50,722 nucleotides of DNA, taken from the IMG/VR virus record IMGVR_UViG_3300031992_004563, positions 329,798 to 380,519 of that record. One strand, given 5' to 3'. This DNA comes from a virus. Lineage: Duplodnaviria; Heunggongvirae; Uroviricota; Caudoviricetes. The notes under the pieces are model-generated. The model was not told the origin of the DNA and ran no database searches. It saw nothing but the letters and a program-made list of their open reading frames with translations. Positions 7,233 to 40,510 of this stretch are shown one piece after another. Positions within the stretch are counted from its first letter, which is position 1, and each line of letters begins with the position of its first letter. The position numbers were made by a program, and so were the translations under genes.

Positions 7233-7299
7233 AAATTTTTCTTTTATTTTTATATGTTTTTATTATAGTTTTTTCACTATTTTATTATTTATTATTAAT

Positions 7300-24806: not shown

Positions 24807-24869
24807 GATTTATAAAAACTTAATTATGTATTAAACATATAATATATAATAAAAATATGTGTTTGAAAC

Positions 24870-27745: not shown

Positions 27746-27838
27746 ATCTATAAAATAAACACTTTATTTTTATTATTTATTTTAGAAAACAATGCATCAT
27801 TTTTTAATATAATATTTAATAAAATATGCAGAATAATT

Positions 27839-29509
27839 ATGAAATTTAAAAGTATAGAATGGAAAAACATTAGATCATTTGGTGAAGAAATTCAAAGAAT
27901 TGATTTTAATGATGGTGAATTAGTTTTATTAAAGGGAATTTCTGGTTCTGGAAAATCTACAATTCTTTCATTACCATGCATTGCATTATTTGGAAAAACA
28001 CCAGGTTTGACAAAATCTGCTGTACATAATCGTATTAATAAGCATGGATGGGTAAAAGCTGTTATTGAAAAAGGTGGCCATGAATATGTTATTGAACGTT
28101 CATTCACCCCTAATGATTTACAGGTTTTTCGTGATGGTGTTAATATTAATTCATATGGAACATCTTCTGCACAGGATTATATTGATAAAGAGATTGCAGA
28201 TATTCCAATTAAAGCATTTTCTAATATGATTTCTATTTCTATGAAGAAATTTAAATCATTTTTAACAATGTCTCCTGCAGATAGAAAAGAAATTATTGAT
28301 AGAGTATTTAATCTTGAAGTTGTTAATATTGCATATGAAAAAATAAAGAAAGATGCTCGTGAAATTGGAAATATGATTAATTCTAATAATAATTCATTAT
28401 TTCAATTAACACAAACTTTAAATAATGCAACCTTTGAATTAACAAAGCTTCAAGAATCTGATAAATCTTCAGAGAATCAAGCTACTATTAATGCTAATAA
28501 TATAAAGATTCAAAAAGATAATGATAATATTAAAAAGCTTACAGATGTATTAACTGAACATACTAAAAAACAAACTGATGCATCTAATATCATTAATTCT
28601 ATCAAACAACAACAATATGAGAATAACTATAATATTCAAGTTATTCAGCAAAAAATAAATCTTTATTCACAAGATAAATGTCCTACATGTGGTATGTCAT
28701 TTTCATCTGAGTCTATTAAAACTTTAAAAGGACAACTTGACAATTTATTAAATCAAAAATTAGAAATCACTAAAGATCTTGAGAAAAAGGCAAAAGATGC
28801 AAATAATGATTATAATGCAATTACTGAATATCTTGGAAAATTAAATACTGCAATTTTCCAATTAAATTATGATATTCAACAATTGACTGCACAAAATAAT
28901 GCATTATCTGAACAGCTTAAACAATCTGCAGAATATCAAGGAATTAATAATATCATTAATAATACAACAACTCAAATTAATGATATTAAAACGCAGCTTG
29001 AAAAAGATTCTGCTAAATTAAAAGAACTTCAAATTTTAACAACTGTTTATTCTATTGATGGTGTTAAACAAAAAGTAATTGTAAATTATCTTCCTATTTT
29101 AAATAAAGAAATTGCAGAAGGATTAGAATTAGTTAATTTCCCATATCAACTTGAAATTGATATGAAATTTGAACCACATCTTAAAGAACTTGGAGTTGAA
29201 TTGACACCAGAATCATTATCAGATGGTGAAGAAACACGAGTTGATTTAATAGTTCTTTGTAGTTTATTTAAATTATTGAAGAGAAGATTTCCATCAATTA
29301 ATATATTATCTATTGATGAAGTTTTATCTTCACTTGACAATGAAACGTCTGGAATGGTTCTTGATTTCTTAAGACATTTTGCGCAAGAAAATAATCTTAG
29401 TTGTTTCATTGTTTCACATACAGATTTATATCTTGATAATTTTAATAAGATTATCAATGTTGAGAAAAAAGGTTTTTCAAGAATTGAAATAACAAAAGCA
29501 ATTAACTAA
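27839..29509 (+). CDS. gp46: Recombination ATPase subunit (gp46/SbcC/Rad50-like)
   Basis: GISGSGKS Walker A, CPTCG zinc hook, LSDGE signature, SIDEVLSSLD Walker B and VSH. Confidence 0.93.
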   Translation: MKFKSIEWKNIRSFGEEIQRIDFNDGELVLLKGISGSGKSTILSLPCIALFGKTPGLTKSAVHNRINKHGWVKAVIEKGGHEYVIERSFTPNDLQVFRDGVNINSYGTSSAQDYIDKEIADIPIKAFSNMISISMKKFKSFLTMSPADRKEIIDRVFNLEVVNIAYEKIKKDAREIGNMINSNNNSLFQLTQTLNNATFELTKLQESDKSSENQATINANNIKIQKDNDNIKKLTDVLTEHTKKQTDASNIINSIKQQQYENNYNIQVIQQKINLYSQDKCPTCGMSFSSESIKTLKGQLDNLLNQKLEITKDLEKKAKDANNDYNAITEYLGKLNTAIFQLNYDIQQLTAQNNALSEQLKQSAEYQGINNIINNTTTQINDIKTQLEKDSAKLKELQILTTVYSIDGVKQKVIVNYLPILNKEIAEGLELVNFPYQLEIDMKFEPHLKELGVELTPESLSDGEETRVDLIVLCSLFKLLKRRFPSINILSIDEVLSSLDNETSGMVLDFLRHFAQENNLSCFIVSHTDLYLDNFNKIINVEKKGFSRIEITKAIN

Positions 29510-29523
29510 AAAATACTAAATAT

Positions 29524-30285
29524 ATGGAAACAAAATTGATTGAACAAAAAATTAAAGTTTCTGGATGGAATGAAATATATGAAACAACTATCAAATATCC
29601 AGAAGATTTAGAGTTTTATTATACTGCTGATGAAATTGGCAAATGTAAGCATATTGAATGTGAGCATTATTATGCAATTTTTGAAAAATCTAGATATTCT
29701 GAAGAGATTATTAACAAAATTGTAAATAGTACAACACATATATCAAAACGAGAATTTGGTGATTATATTATTTTAACAGTTACTGAAGTCCATAATGATA
29801 CACCACTTCCAAATATTAGTCGGGATGAATATTTCAAAAAATATAATATTGATTTTTCAAAATACACCGCAGTATTATATACAGAAGATATGTATGTTGC
29901 AAATCTGGCTAGAATTGTTAATTTTAAAAACCCATATAGAATTGATACATTAAGTATCACTACAAAAAATTTATATGATAGTTCACGAAAAATTTTACAA
30001 ATGGGAAAAGATACAATTGAGCTTTCTGCAATGATGCTTGATACATCTTCACAAACTTTTTCTAAATATAAAGTAGAAATTCTCAATAATAATGAAGATG
30101 GTGATATTGTATGGAATATTGCATTACGTAATGCTATGAAAGAATTTGGTTTTAACCCAGATATTTTAGATCATGTCGAAGATGAATCTAAATATGATTT
30201 AGATTTAAAATATGAAAAAGTACATGAAGCAATTAAATTATGGAATAAGATAAAAATTGAACAATTAGAACAAACAGATATGTAA
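29524..30285 (+). CDS. Hypothetical protein
   Basis: Intact 253-aa ORF. Confidence 0.8.
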   Translation: METKLIEQKIKVSGWNEIYETTIKYPEDLEFYYTADEIGKCKHIECEHYYAIFEKSRYSEEIINKIVNSTTHISKREFGDYIILTVTEVHNDTPLPNISRDEYFKKYNIDFSKYTAVLYTEDMYVANLARIVNFKNPYRIDTLSITTKNLYDSSRKILQMGKDTIELSAMMLDTSSQTFSKYKVEILNNNEDGDIVWNIALRNAMKEFGFNPDILDHVEDESKYDLDLKYEKVHEAIKLWNKIKIEQLEQTDM

Positions 30286-30464
30286 TGGAAACAAATGATT
30301 TAAATTATTTTAAACAAAAAATATATGAGATTTCTGGAGTTCCAAAATCTAGTTTAGAAAAAATTGAAGAAGAATCATTGACACGAGATGAAGCTATGAT
30401 TGAACGCAAATTTGAAAAATTCATTGAACACTTAATTAAAACAAAAAGTAATAAAAACATATAA
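30285..30464 (+). CDS. 59-aa protein resembling a short segment of T4-type portal protein
   Basis: METNDLNYFKQKIYEISGVPKSSLEKIEEESLTRDEAMIERKFEKFIEHLIKTKSNKNI. ATG overlaps the previous TAA; below the ORF-track cutoff. Confidence 0.65.
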   Translation: METNDLNYFKQKIYEISGVPKSSLEKIEEESLTRDEAMIERKFEKFIEHLIKTKSNKNI

Positions 30465-30490
30465 TATAAAATAAAAATTATCAAAATTAC

Positions 30491-32530
30491 ATGGCAGTTT
30501 ATAAGAGCAAATTTATAGAAATTGATCCAGATACTTGTTCTAAAGAAGAACTTTATGAAGCTATTAAAAAATGTGAAAATTTATCAGGTTATTATGAAAC
30601 CAAGCAACTTGCAATTAAAACATTTATTAATAGTGTATATGGTGCAACGGCTAATAAGTATTTCGTTGGTTATAATGTGGCTGTCGCAGAATCAATTACG
30701 CTTCAAGGACAGGATTTAAATCACTATTCAGAGAACTGTGTTAATAAGTATTTTAGAGGAATTTTTCAATCACAAGAAGAATATAATAGAGAAATTTATG
30801 TTCCATTATTCGAGTGGATGGAAAAATATGATATTGAAACAGCTAATGATTTTTATGCAAAAAATCAAAATAAAGAATGGGTTTTAATTAAACTTCCAAT
30901 TGATAAAGATATTATTAAGGGTGGGAATATTAATGAAGACACAAAGAAATTATTGAAAAAAGTTTTCGTTAAAACTTCATTTGGACAATATCTTGGAGAG
31001 CCTTATGAAAAAATAAAAGGATTTGAAATTAATAAAGGGAAAATAACTCCAACAATTCCATTGAATACTTTTGCATTAAAAGCAAAAAATTCATTAGATT
31101 CAAAAGAAAATCCATTTGCATATATGGGAAAAACCTCTTATTTGGAAGATGACCCAAGTTGTAGTATGACCGTTGCTGGTGATACGGATAGCGCAATTTC
31201 TTCAACAAAAATCTATTTAGATGATTTTCAAAAAACTATAGAAGATGCATTTATCAAATGTAAATTAGAAAATTTTGATATAGTTTTAAAACTACAAAAT
31301 GGCCAAGAAGTTGTTCCAGTTAAAAATCATACAACAAAGACAGTAGATCCAAATACATTGGAATTAATTGATAGGCCTATTAATTATATAATGAGGCACA
31401 AAGTTTCAAAATCTAAATTCAAAATTAAATCTGAATCTGGAAAAGAAATTATAGTTACAGGAGATCATTCATGTATGGTTTATAGAAATAATGAATTAAT
31501 TTCAATTAAAGCAAAAGATATAAATCCAGAAACAGATAAATTGGTCGAAATTATAAAATTACAAACTAAGCTTTCAAATATAAAATTAGTTGAGCAGCTT
31601 GAAGATTTTCAAGATGAATATGTTTATGATATTGAGGTAGATGATACACATACATTTTTTGGAAATGATATATTAGTGCATAATTCAATTTATGTAGAGT
31701 TTGGTCGTATTACAAATTATCTTAATATAATGGATATTTCAAAAGCCACAAGATTTATTGTTGATATGTGGAATTATGGTTGTGGACCATATATGAATAA
31801 ATGTTATGATGATTATGCAAAGAAATATAATTGTGATGTTAATCTTCAAAATCTTGAGCTTGAAAAAGTTGCTGATACAGCAATTATGACATCTAAAAAA
31901 CATTATGCAATGTCAGAATGTTTTAAAGAACCAAATATCTATTTAACACCTGGTGAGGAAGTTATTTATAAAGGTTTGGAATTAATTCAAGGTTCAACAC
32001 CTCCATTTGCAAAAGAATGTCAAGATAATTTTATGAGATATGTTATGAATTGGTATGCAACTCATACAACATCTCCTGAATTTGATGATATTTTTGCGCT
32101 TCTTAAGAAATATAAAGAAGACTTTATTAAACAAAACCCTGAAGATATTTGCAAAGGTGTATCAATTTCTGATTATGGAAAATTTATTTTAGATGATAAA
32201 AATAATTTTGTATTTGGAGAACATTGCCCAATCCATGTTAAAGCTGCAGGAATTTATAATTTCATTTTAAATCAAGAAAAGAATAAAAAATATAAAATGA
32301 AATATGAATCTATTAAATCAAGAGACAAAGTAAAATTCTATAAAACAACAGATCCTAATTATCCAGTATTTGGATTTGTTCCTGGAAAATACCCATTAGA
32401 ATTTGCATTACCAATGGATTATAATCAACAATTTGAAGATTTGGTTTTAGCACCATTAAATAGAATTATTGAAATTCTTGGGTATCAACCTCTTACTTCG
32501 GATTTATGTTATGTATCATCTTTATTCTAA
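30491..32530 (+). CDS. gp43: Family B DNA polymerase, C-terminal subunit (fingers/palm/thumb), intein-containing
   Basis: Motif B KTFINSVYG, ESITLQGQ, motif C AGDTD^S, KKHYA and YKGLELIQ. Confidence 0.9.
   Translation: MAVYKSKFIEIDPDTCSKEELYEAIKKCENLSGYYETKQLAIKTFINSVYGATANKYFVGYNVAVAESITLQGQDLNHYSENCVNKYFRGIFQSQEEYNREIYVPLFEWMEKYDIETANDFYAKNQNKEWVLIKLPIDKDIIKGGNINEDTKKLLKKVFVKTSFGQYLGEPYEKIKGFEINKGKITPTIPLNTFALKAKNSLDSKENPFAYMGKTSYLEDDPSCSMTVAGDTDSAISSTKIYLDDFQKTIEDAFIKCKLENFDIVLKLQNGQEVVPVKNHTTKTVDPNTLELIDRPINYIMRHKVSKSKFKIKSESGKEIIVTGDHSCMVYRNNELISIKAKDINPETDKLVEIIKLQTKLSNIKLVEQLEDFQDEYVYDIEVDDTHTFFGNDILVHNSIYVEFGRITNYLNIMDISKATRFIVDMWNYGCGPYMNKCYDDYAKKYNCDVNLQNLELEKVADTAIMTSKKHYAMSECFKEPNIYLTPGEEVIYKGLELIQGSTPPFAKECQDNFMRYVMNWYATHTTSPEFDDIFALLKKYKEDFIKQNPEDICKGVSISDYGKFILDDKNNFVFGEHCPIHVKAAGIYNFILNQEKNKKYKMKYESIKSRDKVKFYKTTDPNYPVFGFVPGKYPLEFALPMDYNQQFEDLVLAPLNRIIEILGYQPLTSDLCYVSSLF
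31190..31684 (+). mobile_element. Mini-intein (165 aa) in polymerase motif C
   Basis: GDTD|SAISST...VTGDHS (block B T-x-x-H)...VYDIEVDDTHTFFGNDILVHN|SIYV. No LAGLIDADG domain. Confidence 0.9.
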
Positions 32531-36559: not shown

Positions 36560-36688
36560 TATTTTTATATTTATTTTTCATAAACATATTCCTAAATTAT
36601 TATATAATTTATAGAAATAATATGCGTAAAAACTATATGACGCACATTTTTATAATATTAAATTAAAAATAACGTTAAGCTAAATTAT

Positions 36689-38224
36689 ATGATTATAAAT
36701 AAAGAACAACTTGATGTAAATGATAGTAATGGTAATCAAACTAAATTATTGGTTATTTCATATGTTAATAAGGAAGGTAAAATCTCATATCTAAAGTGGA
36801 ATATTCCTCAATCTGAAATGTATGAATGGGCTTATACAAATAGAGCAAATGCTGATAAGCCATTTGTTGCATATGATTTAAATACAAGACAACCAATTAT
36901 TGATGAAAAAACTGGTCAACAGAAAATTGTTCAATGGAAATCATATGATAATAAATTCGTTAAAAAAATTCCAACAATTAAAAATCTTTCAGAGGGTAGA
37001 TTAAATGAAATTATTAATAGTTGGGGTGTGGTTGCAGATCCTTTGTTTGAAGCAAATACACCAGAAACTTGGTTTTGTGATATTGAGGTTCAAGTTTCTC
37101 CAGAGGGATTCCCAGATCCAGATTCTGCATCAATGCCAATTAATACAATAGCAATTACTAAATTTCCAAAGACTATAGTATTTGGACGTAAGCCTCTTTC
37201 TGAAAATGAAATTAAACAAATCCAAGAAAATATCAGAACATATTCTACATTAACAAAAGATTATGAATTTGAATATAGATACTTTGAATCAGAATATGAA
37301 ATGATTGAAGCATTTATAGAATTCATTAAAGATATTCCCGCAATTACTGGATGGAACTTTTTAGGATATGACTGGAAATATATTAAAAATCGTTGTGATA
37401 ATCTTGGAATTAGAGATTTAATTAAAATTTGTCCAACAAGGTCATTTACAAAATTTAAATTAAATCGAAAAAATGTAATTGATGTTCAAGTTCCATTACA
37501 TAAAATTATTTATGACTATATGTTGGTTTATCGCCAATGGGATAGATCAATTGAAGTTAAAGAAAGTGATAAACTTGATTGGGTTGCAAATAAAGTTCTT
37601 AATATTAAAAAGGTTGAGCATGAATGGGGATTTGAGGAATTTTATAGAGACCATTATATGGAATATGTATTCTATAACTTAATTGATACTATATTGGTTG
37701 AAAAAATTGATGAAGTTCTTAAAACTGCTCAAATTTGGTATATGTTAGCAAGTGAATTAAGAGTTTCATTAAATGATGCATTTTCAACTGTACTTCCAGT
37801 AGAAGTTGTAATGACAAACTTTGTATATCCACAATATAAAGTTGTCCCAAAGAAAATACAAAATAATAATGATGAAGAATCAGGAGATTATGAAGGTGCA
37901 TTTGTTTGGCCAACTCAAGCCGGTATTTATAAGTATATTGGAGGTTTGGATTTCGCATCACTTTATCCTACAACTCAAAGACAATTTGGAATTTCTCCTG
38001 AAACATTCTTATTTAAAGACCCAACATATCAACCAAAAGCAAATGAAATTAAAACTTGTAGTGGAGCAGTATATGTAAAAAGAGAAGATGCAGTTCTTCC
38101 AGCAATTCTTACACATTACTTTGGAAAACGCAAAGGTGCGAAGAACGACCGAAAAATTGCTGACACTGATAAAGAAGTGTTATTACAAATATATGAAAAA
38201 AGATTTGGTAAATTTGAGGATTAA
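36689..38224 (+). CDS. gp43: Family B DNA polymerase, N-terminal subunit (3'-5' exonuclease plus motif A)
   Basis: ExoI CDIEV, ExoII GWNFLGYD, ExoIII YNLID, YEGAFV, motif A GLDFASLYP; ends just after the first fingers helix. Confidence 0.9.
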   Translation: MIINKEQLDVNDSNGNQTKLLVISYVNKEGKISYLKWNIPQSEMYEWAYTNRANADKPFVAYDLNTRQPIIDEKTGQQKIVQWKSYDNKFVKKIPTIKNLSEGRLNEIINSWGVVADPLFEANTPETWFCDIEVQVSPEGFPDPDSASMPINTIAITKFPKTIVFGRKPLSENEIKQIQENIRTYSTLTKDYEFEYRYFESEYEMIEAFIEFIKDIPAITGWNFLGYDWKYIKNRCDNLGIRDLIKICPTRSFTKFKLNRKNVIDVQVPLHKIIYDYMLVYRQWDRSIEVKESDKLDWVANKVLNIKKVEHEWGFEEFYRDHYMEYVFYNLIDTILVEKIDEVLKTAQIWYMLASELRVSLNDAFSTVLPVEVVMTNFVYPQYKVVPKKIQNNNDEESGDYEGAFVWPTQAGIYKYIGGLDFASLYPTTQRQFGISPETFLFKDPTYQPKANEIKTCSGAVYVKREDAVLPAILTHYFGKRKGAKNDRKIADTDKEVLLQIYEKRFGKFED

Positions 38225-40446: not shown

Positions 40447-40475
40447 GGATTAGAAAAACTAATCCTTAATTTTTT
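40443..40475 (+). terminator. Intrinsic terminator
   Basis: TTAAGGATTAG-aaaaa-CTAATCCTTAA followed by a T-run. Confidence 0.75.
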
Positions 40476-40510
40476 CTTATAATATATATAAAAAATATGT
40501 TTTAAAATAT

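Follow-up and report, generated by a model that had tools for sequence, protein, structure and literature searches.

Proteins encoded by satellites redirect the assembly of the capsid or the terminase of their helper. [quoted passage not shown] Two sensors that recognize portals are described in a further report: Avs4 is reported, with reference to its structure, to read an extended surface of the portal monomer that is made up of stem, clip and wing, and SpbK to read the clip of the assembled portal ring (PMC12847820).

The locus described here encodes a small relative of this part of gp20. The window that was analysed, 50,722 nucleotides, comprises the final 50.7 kb of an IMG/VR record that is 380.5 kb long, and matching DNA is present in gut sequencing runs of sheep, goat and cattle. 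Many genes of the record are read through TAG codons. The micro-ORF was found at the position, on the strand and with the 59 residues that the original prediction had given (Table 1). Its ATG and the TAA of the preceding 253-aa ORF share one base (TAATG), genes for SbcD-like and SbcC-like proteins lie upstream of both, and the gene for the C-terminal half of a split family-B DNA polymerase (PolB-C) begins 26 nt past its stop, so that the predicted position directly ahead of the polymerase was also correct. The micro-ORF had been described as free of TAG; this is true, yet uninformative, because only one of its 59 codons specifies Gln. A search of the ESM Atlas with the 253-aa ORF and the micro-ORF returned no match.

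Table 1. Positions of the micro-ORF, its parts and related features (window coordinates, except for the portal gene)
Feature	Position	Strand	Remarks
ORF of 253 aa	29524..30285	+	no known family; stop overlaps the start of the micro-ORF
Micro-ORF, 59 aa	30285..30464	+	origin as T4-type portal gene fragment, from profile, tblastn, HMM and alignment
N-terminal 26-codon module	30285..30362	+	alpha7 stem helix and GVPxSxL start of the tunnel loop; conserved, portable
57-nt block, codons 8-26	30306..30362	.	near-invariant nucleotides in the polymerase-linked copies
Middle and C-terminal part	30363..30434	+	fast-evolving; shortened tunnel loop and alpha8-like helix with E..F.KFI
3' end of the micro-ORF, stop and 26-nt spacer	30435..30490	+	AT-rich promoter/5'UTR-like motif for PolB-C, core 30449-30479
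PolB-C	30491..32530	+	C-terminal half of split family-B DNA polymerase, with intein; constant downstream neighbour of the micro-ORF
PolB-N	36689-38224		N-terminal half of the polymerase, further downstream of PolB-C
AT-rich motif copies	30449-30479, 24833-24856, 7234-7265 (-), 27800-27838, 40470-40510, 36650-36688		20-45 nt upstream of TAG-free replication genes
The phage's own portal	G000:C1:18367-20235		622 aa; three TAG codons

The split of the polymerase falls between motifs A and B. The order of its genes is permuted, with the C-terminal half encoded first. In relatives PolB-C is followed by PolB-N after about 30 nt (L012:4199-7306), and in the window the two are separated by 4 kb of minus-strand genes that bear TAG codons. 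PolB-C contains an intein of about 165 aa (31187-31683, Pfam Intein_splicing), which is missing from the 514-515-aa PolB-C of four relatives (L003, L009, L012 and L023). A contig of one DNA run passes directly from 31187 to 31683, leaving out exactly 495 nt, and represents an intein-free allele of a co-occurring strain.

The original prediction regarded the micro-ORF as a stand-alone mimic of a portal segment. Two portal profiles, Portal_T4 of Pfam (PF07230; E=1.3e-4, profile positions 284-335 of 433) and phrog_213 (E=2.1e-5), align its residues 2-50, both at one profile location. The Portal_T4 score is below the gathering cut-off (21.3 vs 22.9 bits), and the best members of the family reach E ~1e-4; Portal_T4 is matched by 24 of 31 family members and phrog_213 by 26 of 31. 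An HMM of five T4/cyanophage-type portals scored 22.5 bits with the micro-ORF, with 20,000 shuffles at 9.4 bits or less, and 27 of the 31 members outscored every shuffle. When 50,697 GenBank phages (2.3 Gb) were searched with tblastn, all 21 matches, each of them weak (E 1-6), fell within genes for T4-type portals, always in the corresponding place. The degenerate DNA pattern for YF..K.Y...GVP was found at 120 loci of IMG/VR, all of them in large ORFs with a median length of 561 aa; the shortest of these are cut by contig ends, and the whole ORFs have the motif at the portal position.

The closest portal segment in IMG/VR, from locus L090, is identical to the micro-ORF at 23 of 51 residues (45%) with one 2-residue gap, and the raw score of this alignment is 93, a value that none of the shuffles reached (24 +/- 4.5). 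The N-terminal module of 26 codons, taken alone, reaches 16.6 bits with the HMM of T4-type portals (0 of ~10,000 shuffles above 6.3), and the C-terminal half alone aligns with the alpha8 segment of portals at p ~8e-4. The pattern common to the micro-ORF and portals is D-x-x-YF-x-x-K-x-Y-x-x-x-GVP-x-S-x-L ... E-x-x-F-x-KF-I/V. The gp20 consensus given in the original prediction proved to be approximately right when it was compared with the residues of T4 gp20.

In database-wide profile searches no portal reached significance, gp20 was not recovered from the PDB sequences with the family profile, and the same profile found only eight small ORFs among 1.8 billion representatives. A search for longer forms returned two chimeric proteins and no portal, and a close donor of the fragment is absent among 5.8 billion proteins. 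The columns that are conserved in the small family do not follow those conserved in portals: the correlation was discarded, as rho fell from 0.29 to 0.06 without the columns that the search pattern forces. At the level of sequence comparison, the likeness of the micro-ORF to portals is shown to be genuine homology, with an origin as a fragment of a portal gene.

The micro-ORF was mapped onto T4 gp20 residues by way of the phage's own portal, using the domain limits of PMC4493910. Residues 3-19 correspond to the stem helix alpha7, residues 20-33 to a shortened tunnel loop and residues 34-50 to the start of the bent wing helix alpha8. The two proteins are collinear and homologous, and the predicted fold of the micro-ORF product is helix-loop-helix. 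Several differences accompany this likeness. Portals have 520-620 residues, whereas the micro-ORF has 59, without wing, clip and crown, and for this reason its product cannot form a portal. The loop is shorter than in the closest portals by 2 residues and than in T4 by 8. The Leu before GVP, the Arg of SRL and the Gly of the loop, which are invariant in portals, are replaced in the small family by other residues that are themselves invariant. The micro-ORF is, moreover, encoded amid replication genes.

The phage has a Lak-type portal of its own, which is 63% identical to the portal of the Lak megaphage Sonny. The gene for this portal contains TAG, and the micro-ORF lies among TAG-free replication genes. 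The own portal belongs to the same protein family as the micro-ORF, and the equivalent place is aligned (portal residues 374-429), at 29-33% identity and with three gaps. The alignment falls in the right place, but it is weak (BLASTP E=0.016); hhalign of Lak portals likewise found the correct location, with E=0.0044 and a probability of 7.9%. An HMM of 33 Lak-type portals gives the micro-ORF 3.8 bits, a score matched by 167 of 20,000 shuffles, vs 22.5 bits with the T4/cyanophage-type HMM, and the own portal is thus not its closest relative. Given the low Lak-HMM score and the gapped alignment, the micro-ORF is not a recent copy of the own portal. What stands of the original prediction is that a conserved piece of a portal, from alpha7 through the tunnel loop into alpha8, exists as an ORF on its own; it is not a mimic of the phage's own portal. 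The low likeness to the Lak portal suggests that the fragment came from another T4-type lineage, or that it split off before the Lak portal diverged there.

Stand-alone homologues of 46-70 aa form about 45 sequence clusters, 64-100% identical, in ruminant-gut metagenomes. Twelve distinct loci contain the start of PolB-C, and in 11 of these a spacer of 26-29 nt separates it from the micro-ORF upstream. What precedes the micro-ORF varies: the 253-aa ORF in the window, in relatives one of 139-155 aa, and in L013 a pair of methyltransferase genes. There are two exceptions to the usual arrangement. In L003 an endonuclease-like ORF of 550 aa that bears TAG codons is inserted 3' of the micro-ORF and replaces its last codons. 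In L023 the order is SbcC, a methyltransferase remnant and a PolB-C of 80% identity; both the ORF and the conserved block described below are absent there, and the micro-ORF is therefore dispensable. In the 550-aa ORF (L003:6302-7954) TAG occurs six times in frame, and an endonuclease motif of the Vsr/DUF559-like kind is present; the ORF looks like a candidate free-standing homing endonuclease written in the late code of the phage. The genes for N6/N4 DNA methyltransferases upstream of PolB-C are intact in L013 (L013:42-1539) and reduced to a 43-aa remnant in L023 (L023:2281-2412), and this variable slot indicates that the interval between SbcC and PolB-C is a hot spot of gene gain and loss.

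The conservation of the micro-ORF is uneven. Four independent indels occurred in the family, all of them in frame, and the start codon is always present. Over the whole ORF 43% of the codons vary in amino acid and 6% vary synonymously only, with pairwise dN/dS of 0.2-1.4. The variation is mainly in codons 27-50, where the E..F.KFI residues are nevertheless retained, and the C-terminal half appears, from these counts, to evolve nearly neutrally. The original prediction had named a dead fragment that accumulates frameshifts as the outcome opposed to it. The ORF is kept in relatives and its indels preserve the frame; yet one relative is without it, and about seven clusters have truncated or frame-shifted tails behind an intact N-terminal module. 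This pattern speaks for maintenance as a coding unit, short of proof.

Within the N-terminal module, codons 8-26 form a block that is nearly frozen in the polymerase-linked copies. Only 3 of these 19 codons vary among eight polymerase-linked loci, vs medians of 10-14 in the neighbouring SbcC gene, 253-aa ORF and PolB-C gene, and only 4 of ~980 windows in these three neighbours are as quiet. Expected synonymous variation was calibrated per amino acid on the neighbouring genes. Of the 17 codons that are invariant in amino acid, 1 varies synonymously vs 7.2 expected (P ~6e-4), and this freezing of synonymous sites exceeds what selection on the peptide explains. The only other near-invariant stretch in the neighbouring genes of the eight loci lies in the ABC-signature region of SbcC (27839-29509), at codons 474-496; such short frozen blocks may therefore be more general in the clade.

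Among all 13 haplotypes of the block, 11 synonymous and 20 non-synonymous distinct changes were counted on 10.7 and 46.3 sites, respectively, which gives omega ~0.45. For the core YFKQKIYE, over all copies, 3 synonymous and 2 non-synonymous changes correspond to omega ~0.1 (binomial p ~0.016), which is modest evidence that the peptide is under selection. Copies of the block outside the polymerase context accumulate synonymous changes and retain the peptide core.

Several readings of the block as a nucleotide element were tried and rejected. A structured cis-regulatory RNA was discarded, since the block has no match in Rfam, folds no better than shuffles (z-score -0.3) and shows no covariation: 0 of 23 predicted pairs have a compensatory change, and the variants break pairs. 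No repeat of the block was found elsewhere in the 380-kb record, where it is single-copy. A slippery site for frameshifting was set aside, as no in-frame canonical heptamer was seen by eye, and an operator for the polymerase, also checked by eye, as the likely promoter of PolB-C comes only after the hairpin. The block as a target of a homing endonuclease was rejected because L003, which bears the endonuclease, has it unchanged.

The 3' end of the micro-ORF carries a second conserved feature. The AT-rich motif ACATATAATAT.AAATAAAAAT is found again 20-45 nt ahead of the genes for SbcD, SbcC, uvsX and PolB-N, and it also precedes a 1228-aa ORF; promoter-like motifs of this replication type flank the operon. 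Late genes that bear TAG codons have a AATAAATAAT-type motif instead, and the two motifs are candidates for two promoter classes. At the 3' end of the micro-ORF the promoter-like motif is conserved at the DNA level in relatives. It spans the last codons, the stop and the spacer, and the tail of the micro-ORF therefore doubles as the promoter-like region of the polymerase gene.

Two rival explanations involve the polymerase gene. According to the first, the micro-ORF would serve the split polymerase as an accessory or a leader, being either a small subunit that aids both halves or an ORF whose translation sets the expression of PolB-C. The link of 26-29 nt to PolB-C is constant while the upstream context varies, and the reading frame is maintained up to a stop that lies within the promoter-like motif of the polymerase. 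However, PolB-C has a promoter-like motif of its own and is intact in L023 without the ORF, the insert of 1.8 kb in L003 parts the micro-ORF from PolB-C, and the N-terminal module is also found away from polymerase genes. The linkage may be passive, since the short spacer has little room for insertions. We regard a leader or accessory function as quite improbable.

The second explanation is the main rival to the reading preferred below, and a serious one. A piece of a foreign portal gene would have arrived with mobile DNA beside the split polymerase gene and have no protein function; its 3' end would supply the promoter and 5'UTR of the polymerase, and the block would have a role at the nucleotide level, or recombination along the margin of a variable cassette region would keep it uniform. 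The frozen synonymous sites, the nearly neutral C-terminal half, the overlap of the promoter-like motif with the stop codon and the absence of the ORF from L023 are all in its favour. The upstream gene content, moreover, switches exactly at the start of the ORF, and mobile elements are nearby, namely the intein, the endonuclease-like insert of 550 aa in L003 and the methyltransferase remnants. A relic does not account as readily for the conserved ATG and the indels that all keep the frame, for the non-polymerase copies that gain synonymous changes and keep the peptide core, or for a block that is single-copy, without Rfam match or covariation, and folds like its shuffles. On balance a relic is judged somewhat unlikely.

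Partners of the N-terminal module were sought by a codon-degenerate scan of metagenome contigs and a profile search. Proteins of 97-123 aa were found that have only the first 26 codons in common with the micro-ORF and that continue into three unrelated C-termini. The nucleotide homology of these chimeras runs from the ATG to near codon 26, their genes lie in small-gene arrays away from any polymerase gene, and their N-terminal modules still match Portal_T4 (E=9e-5 for P0047). The occurrence of the same 26 codons on other C-termini makes the 26-residue helix a portable unit. The family is small: 1.8 billion proteins yielded 8 representatives at 50% identity, and the metagenome scan yielded 6 members. 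One of the arrays (L042:1-3270) consists of small genes whose products all begin with MS(I/V)LKST(N/K)(S/T)G, which is another shared-leader family, and a 120-aa chimera with the portal-like module closes this array.

The arrangement resembles the capsid-targeting sequence of T4, a tag that ends in an L/I-x-E site for the prohead protease. Here too a short N-terminal helical module (~26 aa) is placed on unrelated C-termini, with homology from the ATG. The module might accordingly be an address tag, of which the 59-aa form would be the tag with a minimal payload, and the three other C-termini, one of them in the leader-bearing array, agree with this. The differences are considerable. Tag systems of the T4 type would place the same tag on many unrelated proteins of one genome; here there is one copy in the 380-kb record, and payloads are few, in keeping with the small size of the family. 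The protease site has no conserved counterpart, the junctions being SSLEK, SRLEK, SRLGK, SRLRS and SYLEE. Finally, unlike the T4 sequence, the module is of portal origin and most of its copies are polymerase-linked. An address tag is therefore considered very unlikely.

Structure prediction and expression data were also consulted. AlphaFold2 on the family alignment predicts a helix at residues 3-17, a short helix at 21-24 and a helix at 34-58, with a mean pLDDT of 74; a Foldseek search of the PDB with the 59-aa model returned no match. Prediction of a complex between portal residues 70-530 and the microprotein gave a score of 0.00, which is informative neither way. Contigs of RNA libraries cover the region of the micro-ORF, but late genes are covered as well. 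These contigs break inside the ORF at 30326-30335. The break was rejected as a transcript end, because a DNA run breaks at the same place, and it is interpreted as a branch of the assembly graph at the conserved block.

The explanation that we prefer, with a probability of roughly one in three, is that a T4-type portal fragment of ~165 nt has been domesticated and encodes a small helical protein that docks on portal-fold subunits. From homology, conservation, modularity and genomic position we infer the following course for its translation, timing, binding and effect. A piece of a T4-type portal gene would have settled at the 5' flank of PolB-C in the clade of Lak-like megaphages of the ruminant gut. 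The microprotein would copy the channel-lining hairpin of the portal, that is, alpha7, the slightly shortened tunnel loop and the start of alpha8. The selected part would be the 26-residue N-terminal helix module, with the tail only loosely constrained. The protein would probably be made with the TAG-free replication genes, ahead of the TAG-containing portal. As a free helix of a subunit interface it could dock wherever that helix docks in a portal-fold subunit, or on proteins that bind it, and the expected effect would be that ring assembly is delayed or disturbed. Satellite proteins and the tunnel-loop deletions of T4 offer a parallel, in that an added small protein or a modified part of the stem or tunnel alters how a ring is assembled; for the micro-ORF this parallel is no more than functional speculation.

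The target of such a protein need not be the phage's own portal. The micro-ORF is closer to canonical T4-type portals, and the portal of a co-infecting T4-type phage is therefore as plausible a target. In its boldest form, the proposal is that a copy of the portal hairpin from another T4-type lineage, made alongside the replication genes and docking on portal-fold subunits or on host proteins that recognize these, poisons the rings of competing T4-type phages, times the phage's own assembly or blinds immunity that senses portals; we hold this to be rather unlikely.

The original prediction proposed, besides a regulation of portal assembly, a decoy for immunity by portal-sensing Avs/STAND NTPases. 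Such a decoy would be an early product that occupies or blinds sensors of the Avs4, Avs11 or SpbK type before the real portal appears. The micro-ORF is indeed a true copy of a conserved portal element among replication genes, and the stem belongs to the surface of the portal monomer that Avs4 contacts (PMC12847820). The sensors are, however, reported to read extended surfaces or the clip, whereas the hairpin covers a small part of such a surface and has no clip (PMC12847820). The micro-ORF is, in addition, closer to the portals of other phages than to the own portal, a binder could trigger a sensor instead of blocking it, and no described portal decoy was found in the literature searched. A decoy is thus highly unlikely.

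The comparisons of sequence and gene order confirm the micro-ORF as a real, conserved and unusual micro-gene. Fragments of genes are usually dismissed as debris; here a fragment of an essential virion protein, with a portable core of 26 residues, has kept its reading frame open and its position constant throughout a clade of megaphages. Even as a relic it would document a flow of genes from ordinary T4-type phages to Lak-like megaphages, and it would show how captured coding DNA can give rise to a promoter. A translated product that binds portal-fold proteins, or the sensors of these, would represent a new type of small phage effector, the principle of which is an excised conserved interface helix. 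If the boldest form of the proposal is true, it would be the first natural 'portal-fragment' effector.
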